Source: a virus (lineage: Duplodnaviria > Heunggongvirae > Uroviricota > Caudoviricetes). Taken from it: 64,000 nucleotides of DNA. The stretch is from the IMG/VR virus record IMGVR_UViG_3300037471_000830, one strand, 5' to 3'. Under the pieces are notes generated by a model. That model was given only the letters and a program-made list of their open reading frames with translations, did not search any database and was not told where the DNA came from. Shown piece by piece: positions 6,015-58,839 of this stretch. Within the stretch, counting starts at the first letter, position 1, and each line of letters opens with the position of its first letter. The translations under genes and the position numbers were made by a program.

Positions 6015-6027
6015 TCCAGGAACTTGC

Positions 6028-6936: not shown

Positions 6937-6947
6937 GATAAAACATC

Positions 6948-7955: not shown

Positions 7956-8024
7956 GCCAAGCTCCCCAAGTGCCCTTTCTGGCTATATTGACTTCATAGT
8001 CAATGTGTCAGGAGGGCACGATTC

Positions 8025-8375: not shown

Positions 8376-8384
8376 GGAGAGAAC

Positions 8385-9232: not shown

Positions 9233-9507
9233 CCAATCCTGAACTCATGCTGCACAATTCAAATCAGTCATCACTGAGCAACAAAGACGCAATGATCTAT
9301 TCAAAGGACAAGTCCATCAACACCACGGTGCGATGCCTGCTACGCGCGGGTTGGAGTGTGAAGTCGCGCAAGCGCCATTTAACGATCACGGACGGTCGCT
9401 ACACCGTTTCCGTGCCGACCTCGCCGAGCGACCACCGCACCGCGCTCAACTGGCACTCGCAAATCCAGCGCACGACCGGCGTGAACTTAGCCGCTCTCGG
9501 ATGCTGA
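9229..9507 (+). CDS. small hypothetical protein with weak HicA/YcfA-like pattern (GW..KRH..TVSVP)
   Basis: ATGA overlap with upstream gene; in-frame within ORF 8656..9507; family call is weak. Confidence 0.35.
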   Translation: MTNPELMLHNSNQSSLSNKDAMIYSKDKSINTTVRCLLRAGWSVKSRKRHLTITDGRYTVSVPTSPSDHRTALNWHSQIQRTTGVNLAALGC

Positions 9508-9917
9508 TCGCCACCGCTACTTTGTGCCTGGCTGTCAACGTGTACCAGGAGGCCCGTGGGGAACCCATCCCGGGCCAGTACGCGGTGGCGTTCGTGACGA
9601 TGCAGCGAGCCAAGCAGGACCGCAAGAAGGTCTGCAAGGCGGTGTTCGAGCCCTGGCAGTTCTCATGGACCGTCAAGGGCGCAAGGAAAGAGGGCATCGG
9701 CTGGCGAGTCGATACGCCCAAAGAGAAGGATGCGTGGAAAACGGCGCAGATCGTCGCCGACCAAGTGCTTGCGGGCCGGATACCGAACTGGCTGGGTCCG
9801 ATGACGCACTACCACGCGAGGGAAGTCAAGCCACGGTGGCGGCTGGCGATGACGCGCATCAAGACCATTGGCCGCCACATCTTTTACCGATCGAATCAGT
9901 CAGGAGTGACATCATGA
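9501..9917 (+). CDS. SleB/Hydrolase_2-family cell wall hydrolase (candidate endolysin)
   Basis: motif NVYQEARGEP...AVA.V..QRAKQ...WQFSWT matches SleB-type amidase signature; ATG 9501 in frame of ORF 9333..9917. Confidence 0.7.
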   Translation: MLIATATLCLAVNVYQEARGEPIPGQYAVAFVTMQRAKQDRKKVCKAVFEPWQFSWTVKGARKEGIGWRVDTPKEKDAWKTAQIVADQVLAGRIPNWLGPMTHYHAREVKPRWRLAMTRIKTIGRHIFYRSNQSGVTS

Positions 9918-10975
9918 TTTTTGGGGCTCTTTCGGACTCGCACAACCATTCGTGGTCAGCGTTCGCGTCCACCAACAAGGAGGGCGTGAATACGCGCTTG
10001 CAGGAAATCCTCGACGAGACCCTGCGCTGCGCTCAGGAGGTCAAGGACAAGGGCGGCAGGCTCATCCTGCACACGGGCGACCTGTTTCATGTGCGCGGCT
10101 CCGTCGCGCCCTCGGTCCTCAACCCGACGCTGGGCGTGTACCGCCACATCGTCAAGGACATGAGCATGGAAGTGTTCATGCTCGCCGGCAATCACGACCT
10201 GGAGGGACGCGAAGCCGAGCGCGTGGGCAACGCCATGACGGCGCTGGAGGAGGTCGGCGTGCATGTGATCCACGAGCCCTGGGCGGTCGATGCCTACGGG
10301 CTCGCGTTCATCCCGTGGATGCCGTCCGTGGCGGAGCTCAAGAAGCAGATCGAGGCGACACCGCGCCGCAAGGACGAAACGATCCTGCTGCTGCACGCGC
10401 CCATCGACGGCGTGATTCCGGGACTGCCTGACCACGGGCTCGATCCGGCCTGGCTGGCGGGCCTGGGCTTCAAGGCGATCTTCTCCGGCCATTACCACAA
10501 CCACCGCCACATGGGCGGCAATGTCTACAGCGTTGGCGCGCTCACGCACCAGACCTGGAGCGACGTGGGCAGCAAGGCGGGCTTCCTGATCGTGGACAGC
10601 GGCGCCGCTGGCGTCGATGTGACCTGGCGCTGCACCCGCGCGCCGCAGTTCGTGGACATTGGTGCGGGCATGAGCGAAGCGGACATGATGGCTGTCGCGG
10701 ACGGCAACTACGTGCGCGCCCGCATGTCCACGGGCAACAAGTCCGAAATCGAAGGGATGCGCGAGTTCCTGCTGGGCGCCGGCGCCAAGGGCGTCACGAT
10801 CCTGGCCGAGCCGCCCAAGACGACCGTGGCGCGCAGCGAGAGTGCGGTGAAGGCCGGCGCCACGATGGAGGCGTCCGTTTCCGACTACATCGACCGCAGC
10901 GCCTTCGACAGCAAGGAGAAGGTCAAGGCGCTGTGCCAGGACATCCTTCGCGAAGCGCAAGAGGTTGAGGCGTGA
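9914..10975 (+). CDS. sbcD: Mre11/SbcD-family nuclease (T4 gp47-like)
   Basis: calcineurin-like phosphoesterase motifs (SDSHN, HTGDLFH, GNHD, GHYH); directly upstream of Rad50-like gene. Confidence 0.8.
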   Translation: MIFGALSDSHNHSWSAFASTNKEGVNTRLQEILDETLRCAQEVKDKGGRLILHTGDLFHVRGSVAPSVLNPTLGVYRHIVKDMSMEVFMLAGNHDLEGREAERVGNAMTALEEVGVHVIHEPWAVDAYGLAFIPWMPSVAELKKQIEATPRRKDETILLLHAPIDGVIPGLPDHGLDPAWLAGLGFKAIFSGHYHNHRHMGGNVYSVGALTHQTWSDVGSKAGFLIVDSGAAGVDVTWRCTRAPQFVDIGAGMSEADMMAVADGNYVRARMSTGNKSEIEGMREFLLGAGAKGVTILAEPPKTTVARSESAVKAGATMEASVSDYIDRSAFDSKEKVKALCQDILREAQEVEA

Positions 10976-11388
10976 GCGGCGTCATCTGCCCCTACTGCGA
11001 GAAGCCGGCCAAGCTGGTGACTGGCGCGCAGATGTACCCGTACCGCCCGGACCTCGCCGATCTTCGCTTTTGGGACTGCCGGCCCTGCGACGCCTATGTC
11101 GGCTGTCACAAGAACGGCAGCGGTTATGGCGACGGTACGCGCCCGCTGGGGCGGCTTGCCAACGCCGAACTGCGCGATGCCAAACAAATGGCGCACCGCT
11201 TCTTCGATCAACTCTGGAAGTCTGGTGGGATGAAGCGTGGCAGCGCCTACGCCTGGTTGGCGGACGAGCTTCGTATTCCCAAGCAGGACTGTCACATTGG
11301 CATGTTCGACGTGCAGCGGTGCAAGGATGTGGTCAAGGCAGTGCAGCGTCGGTACGCAGGCATTCGAGCCAAAGGAGAACAAGCATGA
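10972..11388 (+). CDS. zinc-finger protein (CPYC...CRPC) inserted between sbcD-like and sbcC-like genes
   Basis: GTG start overlapping previous stop; Cys pairs; ORF track. Confidence 0.5.
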   Translation: MSGVICPYCEKPAKLVTGAQMYPYRPDLADLRFWDCRPCDAYVGCHKNGSGYGDGTRPLGRLANAELRDAKQMAHRFFDQLWKSGGMKRGSAYAWLADELRIPKQDCHIGMFDVQRCKDVVKAVQRRYAGIRAKGEQA

Positions 11389-13319
11389 ATTTCGAGCTGG
11401 TCAAGATCAAGAACTTCCTCACGCTGGCGGACGCCGAGCTGGGTCTGGCGGATCGCGGGCTGGTGCTCATCCAGGGCGCCAACCAGGATGACCCCAGCGC
11501 CAAGTCCAACGGGGCGGGTAAGTCGTCCATGGTGGATGCGATCTGCTGGGCGCTCTATGGCGTCACGGCCCGAGGCGTCACCGGCGACGCGGTGATCAAC
11601 AAGGTGGCGGGCAAGGGCTGCTGGGTGGAGCTGACGCTGCGCGACGACAAGACCGTGATCATGATCCGTCGCCACCGCAAAGACCCGACGCACAAGAACG
11701 CCTTGATGCTGTGGGTGGACGAGAAGGACTGCACCAAGGGCACCGACAAGGAGACCCAGGACGCCATCCTCAAGCTGGTGGGGTGCAGCCAGGATGTCTT
11801 CATGGCGAGCGTGTACGCGGGCCAAGAGCGCATGCCCGACCTGCCAGGCATGACGGACAAGCAGTTGAAGCTGCTGATCGAGGAGGCGGCCGGCGTCGAG
11901 CGGCTGGAGGCGGCCTACACCATCGCCCGCAGCAAACTCACCGTCGCCAAGAACGACCTGACGCTCAAGCAGGGCCTGCGTGCGTCACAAGCCACCACGC
12001 TGGCAAGCGAGGAGGCGTCGTTGCTCACCGCGCAGTCGAACTTCGCCGGCTTCGAGGACTCGCGCAAGGGCTTGGCCGAGAGCTACACCGGCAGCGTCAA
12101 GACGATCGGCGCCGAAGCCCTGGAGCTGGGTCGCAAGATCAAGACAGCGGACAAGCCGGCGCTGCTCAAGCGCCAGGGCGAGCTGGACACGGCTCTTGAT
12201 GGACACAAGGAGCGGGAGTGCAAGCGCGAGGAGCTGCGCGCTGCGGTTGTGGCAGCTGAGCGCGAACATGACCGGCGCACGCGCGAGGAGGAGAACTTCC
12301 TGACTTCCGCGCGTCGTCTCAAGCACGCCTATGAGCATCCCGAGGAGGCTGTGAAGGGCAACTGCGAGGCGTGCGGCAAGCCGCACGATGCGTCGGACGT
12401 GGAGAGCTACCGCACGCACATCAAGGGCCTGCTGGTCGAGGCAGTGAAGCAGGCAAAGGAGGCGAAGGCTAAGACCGCCAACGCCTACGAGGCGCTGGTG
12501 ACGGCGCAGAAGCGGCTGGACGAGTATGTCGCGGCCATGCCGGACATGAGCGCGCTGCTGGTGGAGCAGGGCGGCATTCGCACCAAGCTGGGCGAGGTCG
12601 AAAGCCTGGAGCGCAACTTCGTCCTCAAGCGCAAGGACATGGAACGCGAGAAGGCGAAGGCCGACCAGGCGCTCACCGAGCCCAATCCGCACGCCGCCAC
12701 CGTGAAGCTGCTGACCGAGCGAGTGAGCAAGATCGGCGACGCCATCACGAAGCTCAACACCGAAATCATCGAGCAGGAAGCTGCGGTCCAAGTCCACGAG
12801 CTTGCGTCCAAGGTCTTCGGGCCGGCAGGGGTGCGGGCACACATTCTGGACACCGTGACGCCCTACCTGAACGAGCGGACCAAGGAATACCTGGGCGCGC
12901 TGTCGGACGGGAACATCCACGCCACGTGGTCCACGCTCACCAAGAGCGCCAAGGGCGAGGCGAAGGAGAAGTTCTCCATCGAGGTCATCAACGAGAAGGG
13001 CGCCGAGTCCTTCGATGGTCTCAGCGGCGGGGAGAAGCGCAAGGTGCGCCTGGCGTGCGCGCTGGCCCTGCAAGACTTGGTGGCGTCCCGTGCGGCCAAG
13101 CCGATTTCCCTGTTCGTCGGCGACGAGATTGACGACGCTCTGGACGAAGCCGGTCTGGAGCGGTTGATGGGCATCCTGGAGCGCAAGGCGCGCGACCGGG
13201 GGACCGTGCTCATCATCAGCCACAACTCGCTTGCGGATTGGGTGGACCAGATCATCACCGTAACCAAGAAGGGTGGCGTGTCCACCATCGACGGCGCAAC
13301 CGGCGTGGGAGCCTGGTAA
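11385..13319 (+). CDS. sbcC: Rad50/SbcC-family ATPase (T4 gp46-like)
   Basis: N-terminal Walker A GANQDDPSAKSNGAGKSS, long coiled-coil with CxxC zinc hook (CEACGKPHD), C-terminal signature LSGGEKRKV and Walker B; ATG 11385 chosen over longer ORF. Confidence 0.85.
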   Translation: MNFELVKIKNFLTLADAELGLADRGLVLIQGANQDDPSAKSNGAGKSSMVDAICWALYGVTARGVTGDAVINKVAGKGCWVELTLRDDKTVIMIRRHRKDPTHKNALMLWVDEKDCTKGTDKETQDAILKLVGCSQDVFMASVYAGQERMPDLPGMTDKQLKLLIEEAAGVERLEAAYTIARSKLTVAKNDLTLKQGLRASQATTLASEEASLLTAQSNFAGFEDSRKGLAESYTGSVKTIGAEALELGRKIKTADKPALLKRQGELDTALDGHKERECKREELRAAVVAAEREHDRRTREEENFLTSARRLKHAYEHPEEAVKGNCEACGKPHDASDVESYRTHIKGLLVEAVKQAKEAKAKTANAYEALVTAQKRLDEYVAAMPDMSALLVEQGGIRTKLGEVESLERNFVLKRKDMEREKAKADQALTEPNPHAATVKLLTERVSKIGDAITKLNTEIIEQEAAVQVHELASKVFGPAGVRAHILDTVTPYLNERTKEYLGALSDGNIHATWSTLTKSAKGEAKEKFSIEVINEKGAESFDGLSGGEKRKVRLACALALQDLVASRAAKPISLFVGDEIDDALDEAGLERLMGILERKARDRGTVLIISHNSLADWVDQIITVTKKGGVSTIDGATGVGAW

Positions 13320-39366: not shown

Positions 39367-39645
39367 ATGATCACCAGAACCGTGGAAGAAGTGCGCGAGC
39401 GCATGGCGCAGCTCCAGGTGCAAATCCAGACCAGCCAGGACTACACCCGGCAACTGGAGCAGGAGCAGCAAGAGCTCCAAAAGCTCATGGAGCCGGGCGA
39501 GGTCCGCGACGCAACCGACGAGGAAATTGACCTGGCCCGACAAGCCATCGTCTGCGACGAAATCCAGGTGGACAACTTCGCCAAAGCCTTCGACGACGGC
39601 TGCGTGTGGGTCTCGGCGTGGATTCGCATCAAGAAGGAGGACTGA
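39367..39645 (+). CDS. hypothetical protein
   Basis: ORF track; RBS GAGGAGGACTGCCATG. Confidence 0.5.
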   Translation: MITRTVEEVRERMAQLQVQIQTSQDYTRQLEQEQQELQKLMEPGEVRDATDEEIDLARQAIVCDEIQVDNFAKAFDDGCVWVSAWIRIKKED

Positions 39646-39647
39646 CG

Positions 39648-39830
39648 ATGCTCACGTCTAAGCAGATCAAGGCCCTGAAGTGGGCCGTCAAGGAGGCCGA
39701 AGCCTGGCGCGGCTCCCTCACCGGCGGCTTTGAGGGCGATCTCAGGAACTTCGACAAGAACGTCGCGGACGCCAAAGAGGCGCTGAAGGAAGTCCAGGCG
39801 ATGAACAAGCGGGAGAAGCAAGGTGCCTAA
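39648..39830 (+). CDS. hypothetical small protein
   Basis: ATG 39648 with AAGGAGGACTGACG upstream. Confidence 0.4.
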   Translation: MLTSKQIKALKWAVKEAEAWRGSLTGGFEGDLRNFDKNVADAKEALKEVQAMNKREKQGA

Positions 39831-40248
39831 GCTCACCCACGAATTCATGGCGACGGCCAAGCTGCCGTTGCTCGCCTACGAGACCACCTACACCTGGAGC
39901 AGCTCCGACATCAGCGATGCCCGCCTGGTGGGCGGTCAGGTTCGCTCGGTCCTGATCACGCGCTACGGCATTTCTCCGGGATGCAGCGCCCCGTCCATCG
40001 ACTTCAAGGACAGCGATCGGCGCCTGGCTCGCGGCTCGGCGGAAATGTTCTACCAGGACGAGGCGTCGGCCCAGGCGGAAATCGACGAGGCGATGAAGAA
40101 CGCAAAGGAGAACCCGCCCTACAAGGACTTGAAGGCGGAGCGCGATACCTACCGTGAGGCGCTGGAGCTGCTCGCCAACGGCCCGAACGGCTACATCCAC
40201 ATCAGTCTGCGCAAGATCGCCAGCGAAGCCCTGGAGAAGTTCAAGTGA
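39823..40248 (+). CDS. hypothetical protein
   Basis: ORF track. Confidence 0.5.
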   Translation: MPKLTHEFMATAKLPLLAYETTYTWSSSDISDARLVGGQVRSVLITRYGISPGCSAPSIDFKDSDRRLARGSAEMFYQDEASAQAEIDEAMKNAKENPPYKDLKAERDTYREALELLANGPNGYIHISLRKIASEALEKFK

Positions 40249-42736: not shown

Positions 42737-42926
42737 CGAGGCCCCGGAACTCACCGAGGAGGCGCTGGACGAGCTGTTCAAGAACGGCGTCTGGAGAGTC
42801 GAAGGACGCATCGTGAGCAAGGAGGAGGGGATAGCCGCCATGCGTCAGGCTCTTGCGAAAGACCCCTCCAGCCGGCCGCAGGACTTCGCCAAGCCGACGA
42901 ACTTCTCCAAGAAATACCGCCTCTGA
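42690..42926 (+). CDS. brnA: BrnA-like (DUF4415) antitoxin
   Basis: immediately downstream of and overlapping BrnT gene; DEAPELTEEALDE resembles DUF4415 N-terminal motif; alternative GTG start at 42726. Confidence 0.5.
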   Translation: MIEKLPDTAPAWVDPDEAPELTEEALDELFKNGVWRVEGRIVSKEEGIAAMRQALAKDPSSRPQDFAKPTNFSKKYRL

Positions 42927-42941
42927 GGGCGCCACAAAGCA

Positions 42942-42971
42942 AGGGCCAGGATCACCACCTGGCCCTTTTCT
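42942..42971 (+). terminator. rho-independent terminator (AGGGCCAGG-atcaccac-CTGGCCCT + TTTCT)
   Basis: 9-bp stem and T-run directly after brnA-like stop. Confidence 0.6.
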
Positions 42972-43856
42972 ATTGCACAAGCGGAATTGCATAAGCCCAC
43001 CCACCAGGCCAAGGACAAATTCCAAGTCCTGACAGCCACTTAGAGCAATCCGCATCCAGAATTCTGCTCAAAACCGCAGTTCTGAATCAGACCAGAACCC
43101 GCAGCGAAGCCCTCAGAAAATCACACCCCAGCAAAGCCCATAGAACCGGGCTACAAGCGCGCCAAAACGCCCGGGAGTACCACGACAGCACCGAACCCGG
43201 CAAATCGCGCATAGAGCGTTTAAAGGGCTCGTCTCCAAAAGCCCAGGCGGGACCGAACTTCCCGCGATCTTCTTCCACCAAGGAAAGCTTCAAAGCCAAG
43301 GCTGCTTCCCCAAGCCGTCGCCGTAAAGATCAAAAGCTCTTACCTTCTTCTCTATATCTATATCTTTACGCTGAGGGGTGGATTCCCCAAGTCCCAAACT
43401 TCCACGCCAAGAAGGAAGACCTCACCGGAATCAGGAACCAACGCCTCAGCTGGATCGGCCAGGAAAACCGTAAGCGAGAAGACCTCGGCGGAATCCAACA
43501 CGGAGAAGGACACGGAGAGAAGACTGGACAGGCATGGAGAGAAGATCACCGGAGAGAAGGATCAACCCATAGGCTCAATGTAGGGAGAGAAGGCTGGATA
43601 GATCAGGAAGCCCATGTGTTCGGCTGTAGAGCTGGATATGCCTAGGAATGCGCCTGACCGTTCTCTTTGGCTTTTCGCCTCTCTGCCCTGTTCACCCGTT
43701 TTCCACCTCTCCGCCCTGTTTTCCATCCCTTCACCCGTTTTCCATTGGGTTGCCTATCCTGAAAAACCTCACATCGCCGCCAATCCTTGCACAGCCTCAC
43801 CCCGCGCCAAGGAAAGCCAAGGACTGCCTACACTCAGCAGCCAGAGGGAGAAAGCC

Positions 43857-44141
43857 ATGAACAATCCAAAGCCCGCCACATTCGTCCTGGTGATGCTCCG
43901 GGAGCTTGGCCGCGCCGAGATGTTCCTGACCACCGCCGAGGACGAACTTGCCCGCCACCAGATCATCTATGCCTTCTCTCCAAGGACGGAAGGCACCGGC
44001 TTTCAGATTCGCATCCGGCGTGAGTTCCTGGAGCCGGCCAACCTCATGGATGAGGAAAGCCTAGGCGCGGTGGAGCGCGCCATCGAGGCGGAGCTTCTGA
44101 CGCTGTTGACGCTCCACAGGGCCAAAGCCAAGGCTGCCTGA
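43857..44141 (+). CDS. hypothetical protein
   Basis: ATG 43857 with AGGGAGAAAGCC RBS inside ORF 43614..44141. Confidence 0.45.
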   Translation: MNNPKPATFVLVMLRELGRAEMFLTTAEDELARHQIIYAFSPRTEGTGFQIRIRREFLEPANLMDEESLGAVERAIEAELLTLLTLHRAKAKAA

Positions 44142-44275
44142 TTCATTCCTTCTTCTCTCCTGGGCCAAGGAAAGCCTAGGCGGGGTTGCAGGCGACGCAG
44201 CTCTCCTGTCTCTATCTCCTGAGTGCGGTCGGTGAAATACACCCATCGACAACAACGACACGGAGAGAAGAAGGA

Positions 44276-44578
44276 ATGCCCAAGATCATCCAAATCAAAG
44301 GTTTCTACGAAGGCGATCACATCGAGCACATCTTGGGCGAGCAGGCTGCGGAGCCAAGGGAGGACTGGAAGCGCATCCAGCGCGTTCCGCTCGTCGAGGG
44401 CCAGCCCTGGTTCAACGCCTACCCGATGACGGGTGGCGCGGTGATCGTCCAGCAGCACCGGATCGTGGAAGTGCGTGAGGCGACGCTGGACGACTTGGAG
44501 AAGGTCAAGCTGTGCATGCCCTTCAATCCTGCGTACCAGCGCGTCCTGGCGCTGTTCCAGGCTGAGGCGCCGGCATAG
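44276..44578 (+). CDS. hypothetical protein
   Basis: ATG 44276 with GGAGAGAAGAAGGA RBS; followed by terminator. Confidence 0.5.
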   Translation: MPKIIQIKGFYEGDHIEHILGEQAAEPREDWKRIQRVPLVEGQPWFNAYPMTGGAVIVQQHRIVEVREATLDDLEKVKLCMPFNPAYQRVLALFQAEAPA

Positions 44579-46162: not shown

Positions 46163-46799
46163 ATGGGCCAGAGAACGCCTAGGACCGTCTGCCAGCGCCT
46201 TGGAGCGCGGCGGCATGGCTGGATTCCTTTGGCTTTGGAGAGCGCGGCGGCGCTGTAGAGGGCTCTGGAGAGGCTGCTGGTGCCTTGGAAAGCCGGCAAT
46301 GCCATGGAAAGCCTAGGCGTTGCTGGAGATGGATTTGGAGCTCTGGATTTCGGAGTACGGCGGACTGGCTGGAAATCCTTGGATTTTTGTGTACGGCGGC
46401 GAGGCTGGAAACGTTAGGAGTAATATCGCGCGGCGGGGCAGGGCGGTCGCTCAAAACCGCAGGTCGCCTTTTCGAGCGCGAGCGGCCGAATCCACGACAG
46501 AAGCCAAAATCCGCGTCAGAAGTCATTTCCACTGGAAATGCGAAAAACCGCAGGAGTCGCGGTTTTCACCGGAAAAGCGAATATGCGCAGGAGTCGCAGT
46601 TATTGCGACTGACGCGGGTTCCATGGGTTTTACGGGTCCACCAGTCTTTACGCTTTTTGGGTTTATTCCAGAAAGTTCGTTCCGCGTTGAATGGGGGCAT
46701 GCATAAGTCAGCAGTGAGTGCATAATGGGCACCAGTTCGCAGCACGGTGCAGCGAACGAAGCAGAGCAAAGTTGCTCAGTCACTAGTGAAAGGTTTCAC

Positions 46800-47703
46800 C
46801 ATGAACGCTCAAGCCGCAAAGCCCGCCCGCAAGACTGCTTCCCGCAAGACCGCAGCGCGCAAGCAAGAGCAAGCCGCAGTTGCTCCCTCGTTCGCCCTTG
46901 TCGTTGCGGGCGAACTGGTGCAGCACGTTAACGGTGATGACGTGTACGCAGCAAAGCAAGCCCTCGCACTGCCCGCACCGCAACCCTTGATTATTGACGG
47001 TGCAGACCTTGTGCGGGAAGTTGCAGACACGTTGCAAGCCGCTGAGATTGAATCGCCCGCTGACTTCACGACTACCGAAACCATCGCCCCCGCTACCGTT
47101 GAAACCACTACCGAAGCCGCACCTATGAGCACTGAAAACACTTTCACCGCGCGCATGCTGCACGCCCTTGCTGCACGCCCGCAAGCAAGCAAAGATATTG
47201 ATCTCACTGTCAGCGCAATCAAAAAGGGCGAGCGCGCGCTAAATATGCTCGCTGCTCGCCCTGAGTGGTCAGATGTCTGTGAATCGCTTGTGAAGCGCGC
47301 AAGCGTTGCAGACAAGGGCAATAGCGGCTTTGTCGCGGTGAAAGCATGGGTAAAGATCATTCACGCAATGACGGGCATAAGCGCGGGCATCAAGGGCTAT
47401 TTTGACCCGTATTCCCGCACCATCATTGCGAACCTTGCAGCGGGCGTGAATCTCACGAACAAGGGCGCGCTGGTCTCGCTGAGTAAGTCAATTGAATTCA
47501 CTGCGCTTGACACTGAGCAAGCCCTTAAAGCCCGCTATAACTGCGGTGCGAGCACTGCAACCACTCAAGCAAGCAGCACGCGCATGATGCTGCAAGCCCT
47601 GGGTTTGTACGCGGTGCAAAAGGGCAAGGTCGGTGACGTTATCACCCCGCTTGAGAATGCGCGCACTGCGGCTTTGGTTGCAATGTTCAAAACGGGCGAG
47701 TAA
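46800..47703 (+). CDS. hypothetical protein in lower-GC island
   Basis: ATG 46800 in ORF 46747..47703; local GC visibly lower than genome average. Confidence 0.5.
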
Positions 47704-47774
47704 ATAATAAGTCAGTGGTGACTGTTTCACGTGAAACGGTCACCCCGCAAGTAAATCAGCAAAGCACTCAGATC

Positions 47775-49182: not shown

Positions 49183-50796
49183 TCAGGCCGCCTTCTTCAG
49201 GTCGGGGAAGCCTTCGGCGTCGTAATCGAAGTCCGCGCCGCCCAACAGGATGCCTTCGGCAAAGCCTGGGGTGTTGGACACGATCTCTCGGCGCTGCTTG
49301 GCGTGCTTCATCAGGTTCTCGTTGAAGCGGTCCTCGAAGTCCACGATGAAGCAGGTGTTCGGCCCCGCCTTCTTCGCCCGCAGGCCGCGACCGACACGCT
49401 GACGCAGCGCGACCTCGGCCTTGCCGCCACCGGCCAGGATCACCATCCCCACAGCCGGCACGTCCACACCCACATCCAGGATGGTCGTGCCAATGAGCAC
49501 GTCGAGCTTGCCGCTGCTCAGGGCTTGCAGCGCCCGCTTGCGCCCGACCTGATCGTCCTCACCCTGGATAAAGCTCGCCCGCAGACCCCGAGCCTCCAGC
49601 AGCTCCATCAGCCGCTCGCCGTGCTTCTTGTGCTGAACCAGCGCCATGACGGTGAGGCCACGGCCGACCGCGCGGTGAGCCTCGAAGGCAATCGCCTGGT
49701 TGCGCTCCTCGTTCTGCACGATGCCCAGCCGGTAAGCCGCCTGCCAGGCGGTGTTGCGCATCAGGTGCTCGGGCTTGGTGTGGAGCTGCACGAACTTGAA
49801 GATCGGGCGGGCCAGGATGCCGCGCTCGATGAGGGTCTGCTCCGAGACACGGATGGCGATCGGGCCGGAGGACGCCATCAGCCGCATGTTGGCTTCTTCG
49901 TCGCTGCGCATGAACGGCGTGGCGGTCAGCGCCAGCCGGTAGTGCGCGTTGATGCAGTGGCGCAGGATGTCGTAGTACGAGTTGCCGCCCGCCTCGTGGG
50001 CTTCCTCCAGGATCACGAACTCGAACTTGGACAGCAGGTTGATGGTCTGCTCGCGCAGCAGGGCTTGCTGACGCTGCTTTTCCGGCGTGTCCTTCGGGTC
50101 AGGCTCTGCCAGGCGAGCCACCAGGGTCTGCACCATGCCCACGGACATTTTCTTGATCGCGCTGCGCTCACGGCCATCGGCACCGACGATGGTGTGACCA
50201 AACTGGCCGTCGCCGAGCACGGACACCGACTGCTTCAAGTCCTTCTCGAACGTGTCCTTCATTTGGTACATGAGGACCGAGCGCGTGGTCAGGAACAGGG
50301 TGGGGCGGTTGATGCGGGCGAATGCCAGGCGGGCGATGCGTGATTTGCCGCCACCCGTGGCGACCTGGGCAATGATTTGGCCGTGCTTCACCAGCCGGCG
50401 CACAACTTCGGGCTGATAGTCGTAGCGCGGGTCTTCCGGGAACTCATCGACCACGGGATTCTCGGGACCAAGTGGCGCGGGCATGGGCTTTCTGACAAGC
50501 CGCACTTCGTAGCCATCGCGCTTCAGGTGCGCAGTGACGAAATGCACGAACCCGGCAGGGAAGGTGCCCTTTTTGAAATCGAGAAAACTGGATTTGCCAT
50601 CCCAGCGGCCGGTCTTAAACAGCATCGTGTTTTCGTGACCGGCCACGGTGTACGAAAGCGCGGTCTGGACCAGCAATTTGGCGTCGCGGTCGGGCTCGTG
50701 CAACTTGGCCGTGACGGCATTGGCAAGAATGGTGATCGTCTTCATTTTGGCTGTGGCTTGACCGCGCTCCATAAGGACATTATTATAAGTCATCAC
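49183..50796 (-). CDS. SF2 DEAD/DEAH-box DNA helicase (UvsW-like)
   Basis: motif I ATGGGKS, motif II ILEEAH, motif III LTATP, motif VI QRVGRGLR; alternative start at 50745 (MKTITIL). Confidence 0.8.
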   Translation of the reverse strand: MMTYNNVLMERGQATAKMKTITILANAVTAKLHEPDRDAKLLVQTALSYTVAGHENTMLFKTGRWDGKSSFLDFKKGTFPAGFVHFVTAHLKRDGYEVRLVRKPMPAPLGPENPVVDEFPEDPRYDYQPEVVRRLVKHGQIIAQVATGGGKSRIARLAFARINRPTLFLTTRSVLMYQMKDTFEKDLKQSVSVLGDGQFGHTIVGADGRERSAIKKMSVGMVQTLVARLAEPDPKDTPEKQRQQALLREQTINLLSKFEFVILEEAHEAGGNSYYDILRHCINAHYRLALTATPFMRSDEEANMRLMASSGPIAIRVSEQTLIERGILARPIFKFVQLHTKPEHLMRNTAWQAAYRLGIVQNEERNQAIAFEAHRAVGRGLTVMALVQHKKHGERLMELLEARGLRASFIQGEDDQVGRKRALQALSSGKLDVLIGTTILDVGVDVPAVGMVILAGGGKAEVALRQRVGRGLRAKKAGPNTCFIVDFEDRFNENLMKHAKQRREIVSNTPGFAEGILLGGADFDYDAEGFPDLKKAA

Positions 50797-50810: not shown

Positions 50811-51470
50811 ATGTCCAGACTCAAGATCGAATATGGGCCGCCGACGCGGCTCGTGGCGAACGACTACAACGTCAATGTCGTCAGCCCGGAGAACCAGGCG
50901 AAGATCGACGCTTCCGTGTCGAGGTTTGGTTTCTTCAAGCCGATCCTCTGTCGGGAACTGCCTGACGGTCGGCTTGAAATCATCGGCGGCGAACACCGAT
51001 GGCAGGCCGCGCAACGCCTGGGCATTGCCGAGGTTCCCTTCATCAATCTCGGACCCCTGAGCGACGCGAAGGCCAAGGAAATTGGCATCGTGGACAACGG
51101 CCGCTATGGCGCCGACGACACGCTGCGCATGGCGGAATTGCTGGAGAGCATTGGTCTGGATGCCGATGAACTCGCCTCCTTCATGCCGTATTCCGAGAGC
51201 GACTTCAACGCGATCTTCTCGTCAGTCACTATAGAACTCGACGAGTTGGATCTTGACGAGGACGAGGCGAAGAAGCCCGAGTCGCCTCGCGAAAAGCCTG
51301 CCCAAACCGCCCAGGTGCTGCGTTTCAAGGTCGGCTTGGAAGACGCCGACTGGATTTCCAAGCTTGTGACCCGAACCATGAAGACGCAGGGCTTCAAGGA
51401 GGCCGACGAGCTGACCAACGCCGGCGACGCGCTGGTTCATCTGCTGCGAGGGATCAAGGATGCCGCGTGA
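50811..51470 (+). CDS. ParB N-terminal-domain (ParB/Srx) nuclease-like protein
   Basis: IIGGEHRWQAAQRLG matches ParB GxxRxxA box. Confidence 0.6.
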   Translation: MSRLKIEYGPPTRLVANDYNVNVVSPENQAKIDASVSRFGFFKPILCRELPDGRLEIIGGEHRWQAAQRLGIAEVPFINLGPLSDAKAKEIGIVDNGRYGADDTLRMAELLESIGLDADELASFMPYSESDFNAIFSSVTIELDELDLDEDEAKKPESPREKPAQTAQVLRFKVGLEDADWISKLVTRTMKTQGFKEADELTNAGDALVHLLRGIKDAA

Positions 51471-52017: not shown

Positions 52018-52406
52018 GACTTCCCCGACTGTTCCTGATGACCGCCGCGCTGGCGGCTTCCCTGAGCCTGACCGCCTGCCAGCCTGAAGTGGTGGCCGCC
52101 GCGCCGGCTGCTTCCGCGCCCCAGGTGGTTCCCGTACCCCAGGCGGCCGACAGCTTCGACACCGGCGACGCGGCCCTGGGTGCCGTGGCCGGCGCTGCGG
52201 CGGGCTACATGCTGGGCAAGGCCGCCTCGCCGAGCTACGCCCACCCGCCCCAACCGCAGACCGTGGTGGTGCATCAGCCGCCCCCGCAGAGCGCCTACTA
52301 CGGCCAGCGCAACGCCTACACGACCACGACGACCACCGTGCGCCGCAGCGGCTTCGGCGGCAAGACCGTGACCACCACGCGCACCGTGACGAGGGGCCGG
52401 CGATGA
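52014..52406 (+). CDS. lipoprotein with glycine-zipper (lipobox SLTAC; GAVAGAAAGYMLG) and Thr-rich C-terminus
   Basis: signal peptide plus LTAC lipobox read from translation. Confidence 0.55.
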   Translation: MRLPRLFLMTAALAASLSLTACQPEVVAAAPAASAPQVVPVPQAADSFDTGDAALGAVAGAAAGYMLGKAASPSYAHPPQPQTVVVHQPPPQSAYYGQRNAYTTTTTTVRRSGFGGKTVTTTRTVTRGRR

Positions 52407-53044
52407 AACCCAACATCCAAGTCTGGTCCGTCGAGGACGTGAAGCCCTACGAGGCCAACGCCAAGAAGCACCCACCCGAGCAGATTCGTCGCATCGCCAA
52501 GTCGATCAAGGAGTTCGGCTGGACGCAGGCCATCTCCGTGGACAAGGACGGCGTGATCATCGCCGGCCACGGCCGCCGCCTGGCTGCGATGGAGCTGGGG
52601 CTGAAGCAAGTGCCGGTGTGGGTGCGTGACGACCTCACGCCGGAGCAGGTCCGCGCCGCGCGGCTGGCCGACAACCGCGTGGCCGAGTCCGAGATCGACA
52701 CCAACCTCCTGCAAGCCGAGCTTCGCGCGTTGGACTTCGACCTCTCTGGCATCTTCGACGACAAGGAGCTGGCCTTCCTGGATGCCGACTTGGCCGAGCT
52801 CAACGCCGACGCCTTCGTCGCTGATCTGGACGCCGAAGTGGAGCGCCAGGCCGAGGAGACCCGCGCCAAGATCAAGGAAGTGGACGAGCGCACGATCCGG
52901 CTGGACCAGGCGTTCGGCTTCAAGAGCATCAAGGGCGCCGATGAGCGGGCGATTGCCATGTTCATGGCGCAGATCGAGAGCGAGACCGGCAAGGAGGGCG
53001 CCGAGGCCCTGGTCGAGCACGTCAAAACCTACCGCGGAAAGTAA
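52403..53044 (+). CDS. ParB N-terminal-domain nuclease-like protein (second copy)
   Basis: VIIAGHGRRLAAMELG ParB box. Confidence 0.6.
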   Translation: MKPNIQVWSVEDVKPYEANAKKHPPEQIRRIAKSIKEFGWTQAISVDKDGVIIAGHGRRLAAMELGLKQVPVWVRDDLTPEQVRAARLADNRVAESEIDTNLLQAELRALDFDLSGIFDDKELAFLDADLAELNADAFVADLDAEVERQAEETRAKIKEVDERTIRLDQAFGFKSIKGADERAIAMFMAQIESETGKEGAEALVEHVKTYRGK

Positions 53045-54258: not shown

Positions 54259-54716
54259 CGCACCGCTACATCGGAACGAAAGAAATCATGGCCTGGCCGA
54301 CCGAAAAAGACGGCAAGCCAGGCTACAGCGTCAAGTACGCAGATGGCTACATAAGCTGGAGTCCGGCTTCCGCGTTCGAGCCGGCCTACCGTCGCGCTGA
54401 AGGCGGAGACCAGCGCCTGACCTTTGGCGATGCGCTGCACTTCCTGAAGCTGGGGCGACGCGTCGCCCGCGCTGGCTGGAATGGCAAGGGCATGTGGTTG
54501 GCCTATACGCCTGGCAGCCATATCGGGCGCGAATGCGTCAAGCCCGGCCACGCATTGAGCCAGGTTGCGGTCGATCTGCCTGAGCGCGACCTGTTCCGCA
54601 TTGAAGCGCACATCGACATGCGGACCTCTGACGGCTCGCTGATGGTCGGCTGGACGCCAAACACACTGGACGTGCTGGCCGAGGACTGGATGGTCATCGC
54701 GGAGGGCGCGCAATGA
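54255..54716 (+). CDS. DUF2829-family protein (Thoeris anti-defense Tad2-like fold) with N-terminal extension
   Basis: FGDAL.FLK.GRRVARAGWNGKGMWL and HIDMRTSDGSLM.GW..N..D.LAEDWMVI resemble the DUF2829 signature. Confidence 0.55.
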   Translation: MTHRYIGTKEIMAWPTEKDGKPGYSVKYADGYISWSPASAFEPAYRRAEGGDQRLTFGDALHFLKLGRRVARAGWNGKGMWLAYTPGSHIGRECVKPGHALSQVAVDLPERDLFRIEAHIDMRTSDGSLMVGWTPNTLDVLAEDWMVIAEGAQ

Positions 54717-55248: not shown

Positions 55249-56170
55249 AGTCCTGCTGGACAACGAGGAGCTGCGCGTCGAGCGCCGGGAGGTTCCCAAG
55301 GACCACCGGCTCTCGCTGCTGTCGCGCTGCTACATCGAGGCGGGCACCAAGGACGATTGGAACCTGCTGCACGAGCTCCACTACAAGGCGGAGCGGCTGG
55401 GCATCGGCCCGCGCTACTGGCGCTGCGTCATGGACGGGCAGACCATCGGCGTGGGCGTCATGACCGTGCCCAAGATGCTCCTGTCCGGGCGCAACAAGGC
55501 GTTCAAGCACCTGAAGCCCAACCAGGGTGGCGGGCGCGACACCAAGCTCATGAACCGCCACCGCGCCGTGTGGATGAACGAGGTCATCTGCACCAACTCG
55601 CGCCTGGTCCTGGACACCATGTATCGCGGCGCCGGCCTGGCGTACCGGATGCAGAACCTGATGATGCGCATGACGGGCTGCCAGAGCATCGAGTTCCAGT
55701 CCTCGATGTCCAAGTTCAACCCGTTTGCAGAACGGGCTGGCATGCGCTTCACCAAGCCGTCGCGCGCTCAACACTACGAGCGGGGCCTGAAATGGTTCCG
55801 CCGCTGGTTCGAGTGCAACCCGTCCGACTTCGTGGGCCTGATGGACGAGCTGCAAGCCATGCCGGAGCGAGCCAGAGACAAGTGCGTCGCCGAGATGCGC
55901 CATCTTTATTACGCATGCTCTGCCATGGAGAAGTCCGGCGACAACCGCATGAACGGCACTTCGCGGGTGGATGGCATGTCCGTGCCTTACCTGATCAAGT
56001 CCTTGCAGCAGTTGATCCTCGCCAGCCCGCTTTATGGCGTGTACCTCAACCCTGATTTCGGCCGCGAGCTGCCTGATCGCATTCCTGTGCTCGCCTTTGA
56101 TCTCCAGGCCGTCGATCAACCGCTGAACCTTGAGGGCGTAAATCGCCTGAGCGCCGAAATAAATCAGTGA
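55235..56170 (+). CDS. hypothetical protein with GNAT-like motif A (LDTMYRGAGLAYRM)
   Basis: ORF track; GNAT call is weak, single-motif based. Confidence 0.5.
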   Translation: MRAAEVLLDNEELRVERREVPKDHRLSLLSRCYIEAGTKDDWNLLHELHYKAERLGIGPRYWRCVMDGQTIGVGVMTVPKMLLSGRNKAFKHLKPNQGGGRDTKLMNRHRAVWMNEVICTNSRLVLDTMYRGAGLAYRMQNLMMRMTGCQSIEFQSSMSKFNPFAERAGMRFTKPSRAQHYERGLKWFRRWFECNPSDFVGLMDELQAMPERARDKCVAEMRHLYYACSAMEKSGDNRMNGTSRVDGMSVPYLIKSLQQLILASPLYGVYLNPDFGRELPDRIPVLAFDLQAVDQPLNLEGVNRLSAEINQ

Positions 56171-56535
56171 CCGCCGTGACTAGCTCCGCAGACCTCTACC
56201 TGACCACCAAGCAGATTCAGCTTATCTCCGTGGTGGGCCAGCGTAATGACGATGGTTCCGCCATCGACCTTGACGAGTTGCTCGAAAGGCTGCCGTACCA
56301 GCCCTCCAAGCAGAGCGTGCAGTTCAGCCTCAGAGCCCTGGTCAAGCGCGGACTGCTCGCCAAGTCCGAGGCCACGGAGCTGCGGCGCGGCCGCAAACGC
56401 CGGCTCCTGGAGCTGACCGAGGCCGGCAAGACCTTCCTTGGAAGCCGCGCCCGCTCCCATTCCGCGACTTCCTTCATGGTTGCGGCTGACGAAGACGAGG
56501 GCTTGGAAGCCCTTGAGGCGCTGAAAATTGGTTGA
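56167..56535 (+). CDS. winged-helix (PadR/MarR-like) DNA-binding protein
   Basis: QFSLRALVKRGLLAKSE...RRGRKRRLLELTEAGK helix-wing pattern. Confidence 0.45.
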   Translation: MTAVTSSADLYLTTKQIQLISVVGQRNDDGSAIDLDELLERLPYQPSKQSVQFSLRALVKRGLLAKSEATELRRGRKRRLLELTEAGKTFLGSRARSHSATSFMVAADEDEGLEALEALKIG

Positions 56536-56822
56536 CTTCGACAACTTGTTTTTTTACCCCCTCAGCGTAAATATATATAGATAAGAAGAAGAACAGAGAA
56601 AGCTAAAACGTTTACGCTGAGCGAGGCGAAAAACAAGTCCAAGCTAAGTCAACGCTGACAGGGCGGAACGGAAAACGCAGCCCCAAAGAAGCCGCCAACA
56701 TGACCCGAAGCTACCCACGCCGCCCCTCACCGGATTGGCGGTCTCCCAAGCCCCTCAAAACGCGCCGGAACGTGACCGCGCTCGCGGTGCTCGCCCCGGT
56801 CTTCTCGTTGCATCAAAGATCA

Positions 56823-56863
56823 GTCAGCACTGACTTGACAAACGCCAAGGCATCGGTTATCTT
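56823..56863 (+). promoter_or_regulatory. sigma70-like promoter (TTGACA - 17 nt - TATCTT) overlapped by GTCAGCACTGAC palindrome, upstream of terS
   Basis: TTGACA 56835..56840; -10-like 56858..56863. Confidence 0.4.
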
Positions 56864-56932
56864 TGGCGCTCCTTTCAAAGTCATATCCCAGGGCGCCTTC
56901 TCCAGCGCCCATTTTTTTGCCCATTCGAGCCC

Positions 56933-57565
56933 ATGAGCGAAACGCCCGCCAAGAAGCCGCTGACGCCGCGCCTCAAGGCGATTGCGGAAGCCCTGTGGAA
57001 GACCGGCGAGTTCAAGAGCCGCCGCGAGCTGGCAAAGCACCTGGAGGTCAGCGAGAGCGCCCTGGCCGCCTTCATCAAGATCGAGGACAAGGGCAAGGCC
57101 GTCGAGAAGGTCAAGGAGGCGGTCGAGGAGGCTGCGGTCGAGGCTGCGGTCGAGGAGCTGACGCTGCACCAGCGCCGCGTCCAGGACACCAAGGAGCAGC
57201 ACTACAAGATGGCCGAGCACATCGCCGGCTTCGTGTGGAAGGAGCTGCTCAAGGCCAAGTCCGAAGGCATCCCGTTCGGCGTGGTTGCGCCCAACATCAA
57301 GGCGCTGCACGAGGCGATGGCCGTGCTCAACAAGGCACGTGTCGAACGCTACGCGACCTTGGGCATCTCCGAGGACGACGTGGGCGAGGAGGAAGTGCCG
57401 GAGCTGTTCATCTCCGAGCTGACCCAGGAGCAGGTCGAGGAAATGCGCCTGGCTCAAGAAGATGACGACTCGGTAGGCGAAATGCCCGATCCCGAGGAAG
57501 ACCCTGGCAAGGGCGTCGTGGACACCACCGACGACGAGGACGACGGCGTGGAGGAGCTGTCCTGA
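56933..57565 (+). CDS. terS: terminase small subunit (putative)
   Basis: N-terminal HTH-like segment, highly acidic C-terminus, immediately upstream of and coupled to terL (ATGA). Confidence 0.55.
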   Translation: MSETPAKKPLTPRLKAIAEALWKTGEFKSRRELAKHLEVSESALAAFIKIEDKGKAVEKVKEAVEEAAVEAAVEELTLHQRRVQDTKEQHYKMAEHIAGFVWKELLKAKSEGIPFGVVAPNIKALHEAMAVLNKARVERYATLGISEDDVGEEEVPELFISELTQEQVEEMRLAQEDDDSVGEMPDPEEDPGKGVVDTTDDEDDGVEELS

Positions 57566-58839
57566 TGGCTGTCATGCGTCGTCGCTTCGACCTGCGTCTG
57601 CACGCCAAGCAGATGGAGGTCTTCCGTTGCAAGGCGCGCTTTCGGGTTGTGGTCGCCGGCCGACGCTGGGGCAAGACGGCCCTGTCGCGCGTGCTCATGA
57701 TCAAGGCCGCGCAGAAGCCGCGCCAGAAAATCTGGTACATCGCGCCGACCTACCGGATGGCAAAGCAGATCATGTGGACCGATCTGCTGGAAGCCATCCC
57801 GAAGAAGTGGATCGCCAAGGTCAACGAGACCACGCTGATGATCCGCCTGATCAACGGGTCGCGGATCGAGCTCAAGGGCGCCGACAAGTCCGACACGCTG
57901 CGCGGCGTGGGCATTCACTTCCTCGTGCTCGACGAGTTCCAGGACATGACGCCCGACACCTGGACCAAGGTGCTGCGCCCGACCCTGGCCGACACCCAGG
58001 GCGACGCCATCTTCATCGGCACCCCCAAGGCGTACAACTACCTCTACGAGCTTTACAAGCTCGGCCAGCGCGGCGACTTCTACACGGACAACAAGGGCAA
58101 GGTCCGCAAGAACCACTGGATGAGCTGGCAGTTCATGACTGCCACGAGCCCCTTCATTCCGCTGTCGGAGCTGGAGGCGGCCAAGCGCGACATGGACGAG
58201 AAGTCCTACAAGCAGGAGTTCGAGGCGTCCTTCGAGACCATGAGCGGCCGGGTGTACTACCCGTTCGACCGCAACGTCCACGTCGGCAGCTACGCCTTCA
58301 ACCCCAAGCTGCCGATTTGGGTGGGCATGGACTTCAACATCGACCCCATGTCGGCCGTGATCCTGCAAAAGCAGCCGGACGGCGCACTGTGGGCGGTGGA
58401 TGAGGTTGTGCTGGGCAGCTCCAACACCGAGGAGGTCTGCGAGGAGCTGGAGAAGCGGTACTGGCGCCACCAGGACCACACCGTCATCTACCCCGACCCC
58501 GCAGGCGGCCAGCGCCAGCACGCGCGAGGCGAGACCGACATCGACATCCTGCGCGAGAAAGGCTTTCGCAAGGTCAAGTACCGCCGCAAGCACCCCGCCG
58601 TCGCCGATCGCGTCAACGCCGTCAACCGCATGCTGCGCGCTGCGGACGGCTCCGTGCGCATGTTCGTCAACGAGAAGTGCAAGCACTTCATCGGCGCGCT
58701 GGAGCAGACCATCTACAAGAAGGGCTCCCGCGACGTGGACAAGGACGCCGGCGTGGAACACGCAGCGGACGCGGCCGGCTACTGCATCGAGCTGGAATTC
58801 CCGCTGCGCAAGATCGCTATCGCTGGCCTTTCGCGCTGA
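57565..58839 (+). CDS. terL: terminase large subunit
   Basis: Walker A VVVAGRRWGKT, Walker B/DE (FLVLDEFQDM), C-terminal RNaseH-like nuclease acidic residues; size 424 aa. Confidence 0.85.
   Translation: MAVMRRRFDLRLHAKQMEVFRCKARFRVVVAGRRWGKTALSRVLMIKAAQKPRQKIWYIAPTYRMAKQIMWTDLLEAIPKKWIAKVNETTLMIRLINGSRIELKGADKSDTLRGVGIHFLVLDEFQDMTPDTWTKVLRPTLADTQGDAIFIGTPKAYNYLYELYKLGQRGDFYTDNKGKVRKNHWMSWQFMTATSPFIPLSELEAAKRDMDEKSYKQEFEASFETMSGRVYYPFDRNVHVGSYAFNPKLPIWVGMDFNIDPMSAVILQKQPDGALWAVDEVVLGSSNTEEVCEELEKRYWRHQDHTVIYPDPAGGQRQHARGETDIDILREKGFRKVKYRRKHPAVADRVNAVNRMLRAADGSVRMFVNEKCKHFIGALEQTIYKKGSRDVDKDAGVEHAADAAGYCIELEFPLRKIAIAGLSR

Follow-up and report, generated by a model that had tools for sequence, protein, structure and literature searches.

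A candidate packaging-associated site with an AT-rich core upstream of the terminase genes of an SSU5-type phage

SSU5-type phage-plasmids, such as pHCM2, pMT1 and pKpn, and the virulent phages related to them are found widely, in Enterobacterales, Pseudomonas, Rhizobium, Stenotrophomonas and in many hosts that are still uncultured. For a few members of this family the termini have been reported. B1VFA has fixed termini with a direct terminal repeat (DTR) of 3,605 bp according to PhageTerm, and V1VFA-S has a DTR of 3,939 bp as judged from coverage (PMC12509600). The Nickievirus Nican01 is described as "DTR (long)" (PMC11256456), and the terL of the nickie-like phage psageB1 groups with those of 3'-cos phages, a placement made by tree only (PMC8537276). 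In the searchable full-text literature we found nothing on how SSU5-type DNA ends arise or where the lytic origin lies. Here we analyse element B, an AT-rich sequence between nested inverted repeats just upstream of the terminase genes in a 64,000-nt stretch of viral DNA (IMG/VR record IMGVR_UViG_3300037471_000830). We call this whole stretch the window; it belongs to a phage of the SSU5/nickie/RHEph10 type.

Our analysis suggests that element B is most likely a double-stranded DNA site that is recognised by protein and tied to genome packaging and to the ends of the virion DNA. All functional statements on element B made here rest on comparative inference. A packaging-related role is the best-supported single reading, and it is partly supported. 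More specifically, we tentatively favour the reading that element B is a terminase-recognition, end-associated site that is used in pairs, and would place this somewhat short of an even chance. The evidence consists of the structure of the element, its family-wide position, a second copy, arms that change together, and record or virion ends near one of the copies in two lineages.

If element B is such a site, it would be the terS-proximal member of a homologous pair carried by the phage family. Its two or three nested sets of short inverted repeats would be sequence-specific protein-binding arms around an AT-rich core that may melt or bend easily and that would be opened or bent during recognition. 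The small terminase with a helix-turn-helix (HTH) encoded 295 nt downstream would bind the repeats on either side, possibly assisted by the winged-helix or ParB-like proteins encoded upstream. Cleavage by the large terminase, within or close to one of the two sites, would then yield the fixed ends of a virion chromosome with long DTRs. The binding protein, the cutting and the copy that marks an end in this particular phage are all predictions of ours.

The element appears to be undescribed so far; no description of it was found in the searchable full-text literature on SSU5, pHCM2, pMT1, Nickievirus and Rhizobium phages. A conserved and easily spotted pair of cis-sites would be a target for mapping virion ends, for predicting transducible DNA and for engineering these elements.

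Structure, conservation and copy number of element B

Element B is the longest local inverted repeat of the window (arms at most 120 nt apart). Direct reading and an independent repeat search both give arms of 28 nt at 56544-56571 and 56611-56638, which are 82% complementary and 39 nt apart. The inner arms CTCAGCGTAAA (56561-56571) and TTTACGCTGAG (56611-56621) are complementary in 11 of 11 positions, and the outer arms ACTTGTTTTT (56544-56553) and AAAAACAAGT (56629-56638) in 10 of 10. A third, outermost pair, GACTT (56534-56538) and AAGTC (56646-56650), also pairs in the computed folds. Its left half-site TGACTT (56533-56538) overlaps the stop codon of a winged helix-turn-helix (wHTH) gene. 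Its right half-site lies in AAGTCAACGCTGACAG (56646-56661), which is at the same time a degenerate copy of a palindrome, AAGTCA-N4-TGACTT, to which we return below. The left outer arm contains the motif ACTTG(G/T) that is common to relatives. The left inner arm extends to (CCCC)CTCAGCGTAAA at 56557-56571, and its CCCCTCAGCGTAAA is identical in the second copy. Between the inner arms lies the 39-nt AT-rich core (56572-56610), which is TATA-rich at its left end and purine-rich on the + strand (AGAAGAAG...).

An earlier note on this DNA had reported nested inverted repeats around a 39-nt AT-rich loop about 300 bp before terS, and direct reading, repeat search and folding all agree with this; the exact distance is 295 nt to the ATG at 56933. 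Some details change. Of the left outer arm as given there, 10 of 12 bases are complementary and the other two are not, and the proposed end at 56635 clips the last 3 nt of the outer arm, which ends at 56638. The GC content of the window is 61.7% rather than 64%. The lowest-GC 40-mer of the 64 kb is indeed found in the element (56568-56607, 22.5% GC), but it is not the only strongly AT-rich patch, since the second-lowest-GC 40-mer (43324-43363) belongs to a homologous second copy.

The fold of element B is strong. As RNA, its z-score is -3.9 on the + strand and -5.6 on the - strand, and as DNA it is -4.95; in each case 0 of 200 shuffles equal it. The element begins 9 nt past a stop codon. One could argue from the fold on both strands, from this position and from the stems of relatives, which are long enough for RNase III, that the element acts as an RNA hairpin, which would stabilise a 3' end, be processed by RNase III or terminate the upstream operon in an unusual way. 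We consider this very unlikely, for the following reasons. First, element B does not look like an intrinsic terminator: its loop is 39 nt long (loops range from 21 to 70 nt), no T-run, and hence no U-tract, follows the stem on either strand, and a terminator scan was silent there. Second, element B has no Rfam match at the gathering score (the best, mir-320, reaches 18.8 of the 55.5 bits needed, E 0.31), and a search for tRNA and tmRNA found none. Third, second copies lose the stem and keep one arm and the core, and that of the window is inverted and lies in non-coding DNA. Fourth, the conserved AT-richness and the loop motifs have no role in an RNA hairpin.

The second copy in the window, A' (43310-43395, - strand), lies 13.2 kb upstream of element B and is partial and inverted relative to it. 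The inner-arm 11-mer occurs for the third time at 43365-43375, beside the second-lowest-GC 40-mer, which has 27.5% GC and forms the AT core of A'. Like element B, A' has ACTTG and CCCCTCAGCGTAAA at an equal spacing of 9 nt (ACTTG-N9-CCCCTCAGCGTAAA, 43364-43392 on the + strand), and it also keeps AGAAGAAG. When element B (+) is aligned to 43290-43400 (-), a common unit of about 55 nt emerges: ACTTG-N9-CCCCTCAGCGTAAA-(T/G)ATATAGATA-AGAAGAAG...TTTACG. The other arm of A' is degenerate (CGTAAAGAT, 43322-43330, and ATCTTTACG, 43361-43369), and its DNA fold is not significant (z -1.3).

A' is situated in a 0.9-kb non-coding stretch (42926-43857). The longer non-coding stretch 42926-44280 looks iteron-type: it holds four copies of GGAGAGAAG (43514-43592) and three CCCGTTTTCCA repeats spaced by 22 bp (43660-43745). 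It also contains a perfect 17-bp inverted repeat (44144-44160 and 44262-44278), whose right arm reaches into the start codon at 44276.

The element is also found outside the window. The portal protein is 50-55% identical to portals of SSU5, Klebsiella and E. coli phage-plasmids, Rhizobium RHEph10-type, Pseudomonas nickie-type and Xanthomonas/Stenotrophomonas phages, all of 100-120 kb. By terL (73-77% identity), the closest sequences are found on contigs of Massilia, Paraburkholderia and other betaproteobacteria. INPHARED holds no close DNA relative, and a scan of metagenome and viral contigs with the exact inner-arm pattern gave unrelated matches only. Relatives were fetched by terL alignment; a single-protein query with terS found one viral locus and no genome locus. 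We refer to single loci by L numbers.

In all 48 relatives fetched, the 2.2 kb before terL have their lowest-GC 40-mer in the gap before terS, at a distance of 755-1244 nt from terL; the GC content of these loci is 41-67%. The flanking gene order is kept in nickie, RHph_N1_10, JGB6, BUCTxx99, SSU5 and B1VFA. Of 50 loci, 48% have an inverted repeat with a score of at least 10 across the AT core, compared to 1% of random positions, and 22% have one with a score of at least 15, compared to 0.2%. Examples are repeats with arms of 35 nt with a spacer of 36 nt (L020), 25 nt with 26 nt (L026), 21 perfect nt with 41 nt (L101), 21 nt with 21 nt (SSU5-like) and 20 nt plus an outer 8 nt with 44 nt (B1VFA). 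Their DNA-fold z-scores range from -8 to -13.

Loci without a long repeat carry short motifs on either side of the core. In L009-L013, L087 and L111, ACTTGGG stands twice to the left and CCCAAGT twice to the right of the core, and L017 has ACTTATGCTCG twice in tandem. The short repeats in this 2+2 arrangement are spaced by about one helical turn, and they resemble known sets of repeats that are bound by terminase small subunits. The outer arms of the window (ACTTG and CAAGT) and the AACTACTTGT-16-ACAAGTTGTT of nickie (ACTTGT) fall into the same ACTTGGG/CCCAAGT series. The cores are not alignable between lineages. They are always AT-rich, usually have TATA at the start and often contain TAAGTA-type motifs; in the betaproteobacterial clade they are purine-rich on the terS-sense strand.

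Carrying two copies per genome is a trait of the family. The second copy lies 22-26 kb upstream of the first in SSU5-like elements (in SSU5 at 78,270-78,400, between genes 088 and 089), about 14 kb upstream in B1VFA and V1VFA-S, within a non-coding stretch of 1.2-1.5 kb, and 11-15 kb upstream in L232, L244, L247, L273 and L280, each time at a local AT minimum. No second copy was detected in the 9-18 kb of upstream sequence (depending on the locus) of the closest relatives L213-L225, or in the 12 kb of nickie that were examined, including its ends. The copies are inverted relative to each other in the window, L232, L247 and L273, and direct in SSU5, B1VFA, L244 and L280.

In all two-copy cases the arm sequence is common to both copies of one genome and different between genomes. 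The copies of SSU5, for example, share AGA(G/A)CCTGCTTCCGTATATAT, and those of B1VFA share GGACGGGAATGAAGA. From arms that change together within a genome and diverge between genomes we infer a site that co-evolves with a specific DNA-binding protein. Second copies often retain one arm and the core alone, without a significant fold. Since the stem is lost there, the conserved unit would be a binding site beside a meltable core, and not an RNA or DNA hairpin.

Such a unit could also be a replication origin. The arms would then bind a phage initiator, the AT core would be the unwinding element, and two copies would mean two origins. In a variant of this idea that follows T4 oriF/oriG, a transcript from the TATA-rich left edge would form a stable purine-rich RNA-DNA hybrid that primes synthesis. 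Several observations are compatible with an origin. Element B and A' are the two lowest-GC 40-mers in 64 kb, the conserved unit of one arm and a meltable core places an AT core beside repeats, and in the clade of the window the core is strand-asymmetric: a purine-rich stretch follows the TATA at one of its edges. The phage encodes T4-like gp32, UvsX/RecA, UvsW, Mre11/Rad50 and 5'-3' exonuclease genes. Iteron-like repeats accompany A' in its non-coding stretch, as CCTTTACA repeats accompany the second copy of B1VFA in a stretch of 1.5 kb. The second copy of SSU5, however, sits in a short gap of 200 nt without iterons, and repC, the plasmid replication gene of B1VFA, is about 52 kb away from the nearer copy. 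No initiator was recognised among the open reading frames (ORFs) scanned, and the cumulative GC skew, which is uninformative here, has no turning point at either site. An origin would also leave unexplained why the position before terS is fixed, why the SSU5 record ends where it does and why a copy is close to the DTR in B1VFA. Taken together, an origin seems possible to us, though rather unlikely.

Virion DNA ends and a possible packaging role

The linear GenBank record of SSU5 ends with ...CCGTATATATAAATACTAAGTGACTTATTA (longer: ...GCCTGCTTCCGTATATATAAATACTAAGTGACTTATTA) and begins with AATATATACGGAAGCAGG... (longer: AATATATACGGAAGCAGGTTCT...). The opening point falls within the 21-nt core of the terS-proximal copy, a single base ahead of the right arm. 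Compared to the plasmid forms, which run through this place, nothing is duplicated or lost at the opening. A randomly chosen opening point would fall into the SSU5 core with a probability of about 2 in 10,000. Two draft contigs, L099 (Photobacterium, 148 kb) and L105 (a Sphingomonas metagenome-assembled genome, 119 kb), end at the same place. The Cyrano record starts at the SSU5 position too and is for this reason not counted as independent.

For B1VFA and V1VFA-S the coordinates of the DTRs are unpublished. We rebuilt both genomes and placed the repeat by mapping 3,605-bp stretches of B1VFA onto 3,939 ± 3 bp of V1VFA-S. Only one placement in the whole B1VFA genome was found; its left boundary falls at 39,631-39,808 and its right one at 43,236-43,413. 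The second copy of B1VFA (about 40,040-40,100) lies 230-470 bp inside this left boundary. Hence, in both informative lineages, ends lie within 0-0.5 kb of an element copy, as a record end in SSU5 and as an inferred placement in B1VFA. Under a random model, ends this near to one of two small sites are expected with a probability of about 3% for B1VFA and of less than 0.1% for SSU5. By analogy with B1VFA, the stretch 42926-44280 of the window is a candidate location of its virion DNA ends.

Around the inferred boundaries of B1VFA we made two further observations. Six CCTTTACA-type repeats lie at about 39.1-39.3 kb (L204 5110-5330), in the 1.5-kb non-coding stretch that also holds the second copy and the inferred left DTR end. 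At the inferred right boundary (L204 9160-9470) the gene order is the same as at the start of the nickie record (L171 1-250), namely a divergent intergenic gap, then a + strand gene and tRNA-Met/tRNA-Asn. Because of this match, the start of the nickie record may reflect a physical end.

Other record boundaries and repeat models were rejected. The records of B1VFA and V1VFA-S start at non-homologous places, that of Nican01 starts at the ATG of terL, and the boundary of L197 inside the core is a storage-chunk boundary and not a contig end. The terminal repeat is not the interval between the copies (13.2 kb in the window): this interval is 22-26 kb long in SSU5-like elements, and it is 14 kb long in B1VFA, for which a DTR of 3.6 kb was measured. 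Nor does the DTR of B1VFA have a boundary at its terS-proximal copy, since B1VFA and V1VFA-S show no 334-bp indel relative to each other anywhere in 44.3-62 kb.

A classical cos or headful pac site fits poorly as well. A single-site cos of the lambda/HK97 type would adjoin terS, as element B does, but there are two homologous copies in the window, in SSU5-like elements, in B1VFA/V1VFA-S and in five further lineages. Ends without redundancy, as in a cos phage, are seen in the SSU5 record, which is cut in the core, while B1VFA, V1VFA-S and Nican01 have long DTRs. A headful pac of the P1/SPP1/P22 type is not matched: the published termini of relatives are fixed with DTRs and not permuted, and the site is intergenic.

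A number of points weigh against the reading we favour. Some of them concern a site or cleavage at this very spot. A long-DTR phage such as T5 needs no site beside terS, and AT-rich cores are not typical of known cos overhangs. There is the second copy 13.2 kb upstream, and the family has long DTRs rather than cos ends (PMC12509600, PMC11256456). Others concern the ends themselves. The ends of the SSU5 record and of L099/L105 may be places where assembly or sequencing broke off at an AT-rich palindrome, and no IMG/VR contig that terminates in the 2 kb or so before terL does so at the element. The end-associated copy differs between lineages, being terS-proximal in SSU5 and distal in B1VFA, where the terS-proximal copy (about 54,260-54,340) is about 11 kb away from the inferred repeat. 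The placement in B1VFA presumes exact values for the two published repeat sizes, as well as homologous boundaries. Lastly, the relative orientation of the two copies varies among lineages.

Nevertheless, the association with ends, the fixed place before terS and the repeat-core-repeat layout together favour a role in packaging recognition, and the terS-like and terL genes directly downstream count towards it. The earlier note had proposed a pac/cos-associated site or an origin. Of these, a packaging role is best supported, through the place before terS and the SSU5 record that ends in the core, but simple cleavage at element B is disfavoured by the second copy and the long DTRs. Termini elsewhere, which that note had named as evidence against its proposal, are found by inference in B1VFA and V1VFA-S, with the repeat beside the second copy.

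Neighbouring genes and transcription signals

All genes around element B are on the + strand according to GC3 analysis. Their order is: two ParB-N-domain proteins (50811-51470 and 52403-53044), an ABC-type ATPase, a Tad2/DUF2829 protein, a thioredoxin, a phrog_886 protein, the wHTH protein, the gap, the terS-like protein, terL, portal and scaffold. The wHTH protein (56167-56535; 122 aa, PadR/MarR-like, phrog_900) is encoded by the last gene of the operon that runs from the ParB-like genes past phrog_886, and is a candidate binder of the element. Element B sits in the 397-nt gap between this gene and the terS-like gene (56933-57565). The latter encodes a small-terminase-like protein (phrog_867) with an N-terminal HTH, a candidate binder of the arms; in Cyrano this protein carries the label "Terminase small subunit". 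The stop codon of the terS-like gene overlaps the start of the large terminase gene (57565-58839). Searches of the neighbouring proteins against PDB, NCBIfam and Pfam contributed nothing beyond "winged helix" and "ParB N-terminal domain".

Between element B and terS, and distinct from the element, lies a promoter/hairpin unit (56821-56917, + strand). It consists of a late promoter, in which a AGTCAGCACTGACT palindrome overlaps TTGACA-17-TATCTT (56835-56863), and a terminator-like hairpin (56891-56910) with a T-run. The earlier note's sigma70-like promoter at 56835 was recovered by our scan for -35/-10 boxes at 16-18 bp spacing as the sole match; none lies within element B. Relatives (L015 1-110, L002 2840-2940, L166 60-133; nickie and SSU5) likewise have, directly before the terS start, a promoter with a terminator-like hairpin and T-run no more than about 30 nt behind it. 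This conserved layout resembles a late-operon antitermination switch such as lambda PR'-tR'. Given this separate unit, element B is not required to account for transcription of the late operon.

The 16-bp palindrome AAGTCA-N4-TGACTT stands at 20 or more intergenic sites in the window, just upstream of TAcAAT-like -10 boxes or overlapping TTGACA. Among these sites are 5028, 15364, 20297, 22474, 25525, 30819, 38272, 46705, 47709, 50787, 53043, 56821, 58849, 61446, 61492 and 62484. It probably serves the phage as a promoter or regulator motif of its own, and in B1VFA an analogous AATAAGTAAGTGCTTACTT precedes terS, the portal gene and the capsid gene.

One could also argue that element B acts at module boundaries, either in transcriptional control or in clamp loading. 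In that case the arms would serve as operators for the upstream wHTH protein or for either ParB-family protein of the operon, in the manner of KorB or of the dispersed SopB sites of N15. The sites might insulate or switch the late operon and the block beside the second copy, and the AT core might hold a promoter. Each of the two copies does close off a long block of co-directional genes at its 3' end, and together they flank the variable region; element B is the operon-terminal site of the ParB-like/ATPase/wHTH operon. The cores of many relatives have TAAGTA-type motifs that resemble the promoter-associated palindrome of B1VFA, and those of SSU5 and L280 begin with TATATATAAATA. We think a control or clamp-loading site is unlikely all the same. 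The core does not contain the phage's promoter palindrome (at least 20 copies in the window), and there is a separate late promoter 200 nt further downstream. The sigma70 scan was empty in the element, and a -10/-35 geometry is not conserved across lineages. Arms of 21-35 perfect bp exceed the usual length of operators, there are just two copies per genome, and the association with ends would be unexplained.

Two further promoter types were considered and rejected. A T7/SP6-like promoter (TATAG, then purines) would call for a single-subunit RNA polymerase, and none is present among the ORFs scanned. The idea of a T4-type late promoter came from TATAAATA, which is present in SSU5, L012, L017 and L280 and not in the window.

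The ParB-domain genes upstream, together with the phage-plasmids in the family, also raise the possibility of a plasmid-prophage centromere. In architecture, element B resembles P1 parS, in which repeats flank an AT region that is bent by IHF. A centromere of the P1 type is nevertheless highly improbable, since apparently virulent Nickieviruses keep the element too and the window already holds a canonical parS elsewhere. By eye, no IHF consensus was seen in the core, and the 16-bp chromosomal-type parS palindrome TGTTNCACGTGAAACA is absent from element B. The canonical chromosomal-type parS, TGTTTCACGTGAAAC (47720-47734), lies inside a 17-bp palindrome (region 47717-47744), directly after a 318-aa ORF (46747-47703) without a family match.

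The replication and recombination genes of the window (349-3912, 5150-13319 and 49183-50796) encode a Pol III alpha with a C-terminal uracil-DNA-glycosylase domain and a T4-like set. This set comprises a gp32-like SSB, a 5'-3' exonuclease, RecA/UvsX-like and Mre11/Rad50-like proteins, and a UvsW-like helicase on the opposite strand. In relatives, a gene for a sigma-70-family sigma factor lies two genes upstream of DNA polymerase III alpha (L283 36760-37404, which is B1VFA 98,760-99,404; L286 36869-37513). Its counterpart in the window would fall just left of position 1.

Comparison with known systems

Under the packaging reading, the closest parallel to element B in layout and place is lambda cosB (R3-I1-R2-R1, bound by gpNu1). 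In both cases, sites for an HTH small terminase (candidate sites in element B) are inverted around a bendable AT-rich segment, and the small-terminase gene follows a few hundred bp downstream. The inner arms of element B are 50 bp apart from centre to centre, which we take to be like the spacing of R3 and R2 in lambda. Unlike cosB, element B shows no sign of a 12-nt cohesive end or an IHF consensus. It has two or three nested layers of arms and a second copy at a distance of 11-26 kb, and relatives of the window have DTRs of 3.6-3.9 kb.

Short repeats that flank a central region are also known from P1 pac (hexamer repeats, 4+3) and from SPP1 pacL/pacC/pacR, where the small subunit recognises them and the DNA is cut there or near. 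Packaging by P1 and SPP1 is headful, from a single site in or at terS. Here, in contrast, the ends appear to be fixed, and the site is intergenic and duplicated.

Fixed ends and terminal repeats in direct orientation are also features of T7 and T5. The terminal repeat of T7 has an inverted repeat next to it, which is thought to fold back and to prime the duplication of the terminal repeat, and the long terminal repeat of T5 contains a non-coding region rich in repeats and palindromes. Unlike in these phages, the terS-proximal copy of B1VFA is far from the inferred repeat.

Among origins, oriS/oriL of herpes simplex virus (HSV), oriL/oriR of SPP1 and oriF/oriG of T4 are comparable in that inverted initiator sites or a promoter surround an AT-rich unwinding core, and in that they occur in more than one copy per genome. 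For T4, the likeness extends to the UvsW, gp32 and UvsX-like proteins encoded in the window. In contrast to these origins, no initiator was recognised here, there is no skew signal, and the position is tied to terS.

A last parallel comes from herpesvirus pac1/pac2, two related cis elements with an A/T-rich core and G+C-rich flanks. They direct terminase cuts at a distance and are tied to terminal repeats, and it is in this respect that the element pair can be likened to them. The likeness is one of layout, with no similarity expected in sequence, and pac1 and pac2 lie within about 0.2 kb at the concatemer junction, whereas the phage copies are 11-26 kb apart. Our boldest idea, to which we give only a small chance, is that the two homologous sites form a paired cis system that is the phage counterpart of pac1/pac2, with one copy by the terminase genes and the other just inside the terminal repeat. 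Together they would direct the terminase, perhaps with the conserved ParB-family nucleases encoded upstream, to make fixed ends and to duplicate the multi-kb terminal repeat in phages and phage-plasmids of the SSU5/nickie type. Replication priming might be a second function of the AT cores, which would couple replication to packaging. If true, such a pair of sites would be a new mode of specifying long terminal repeats.

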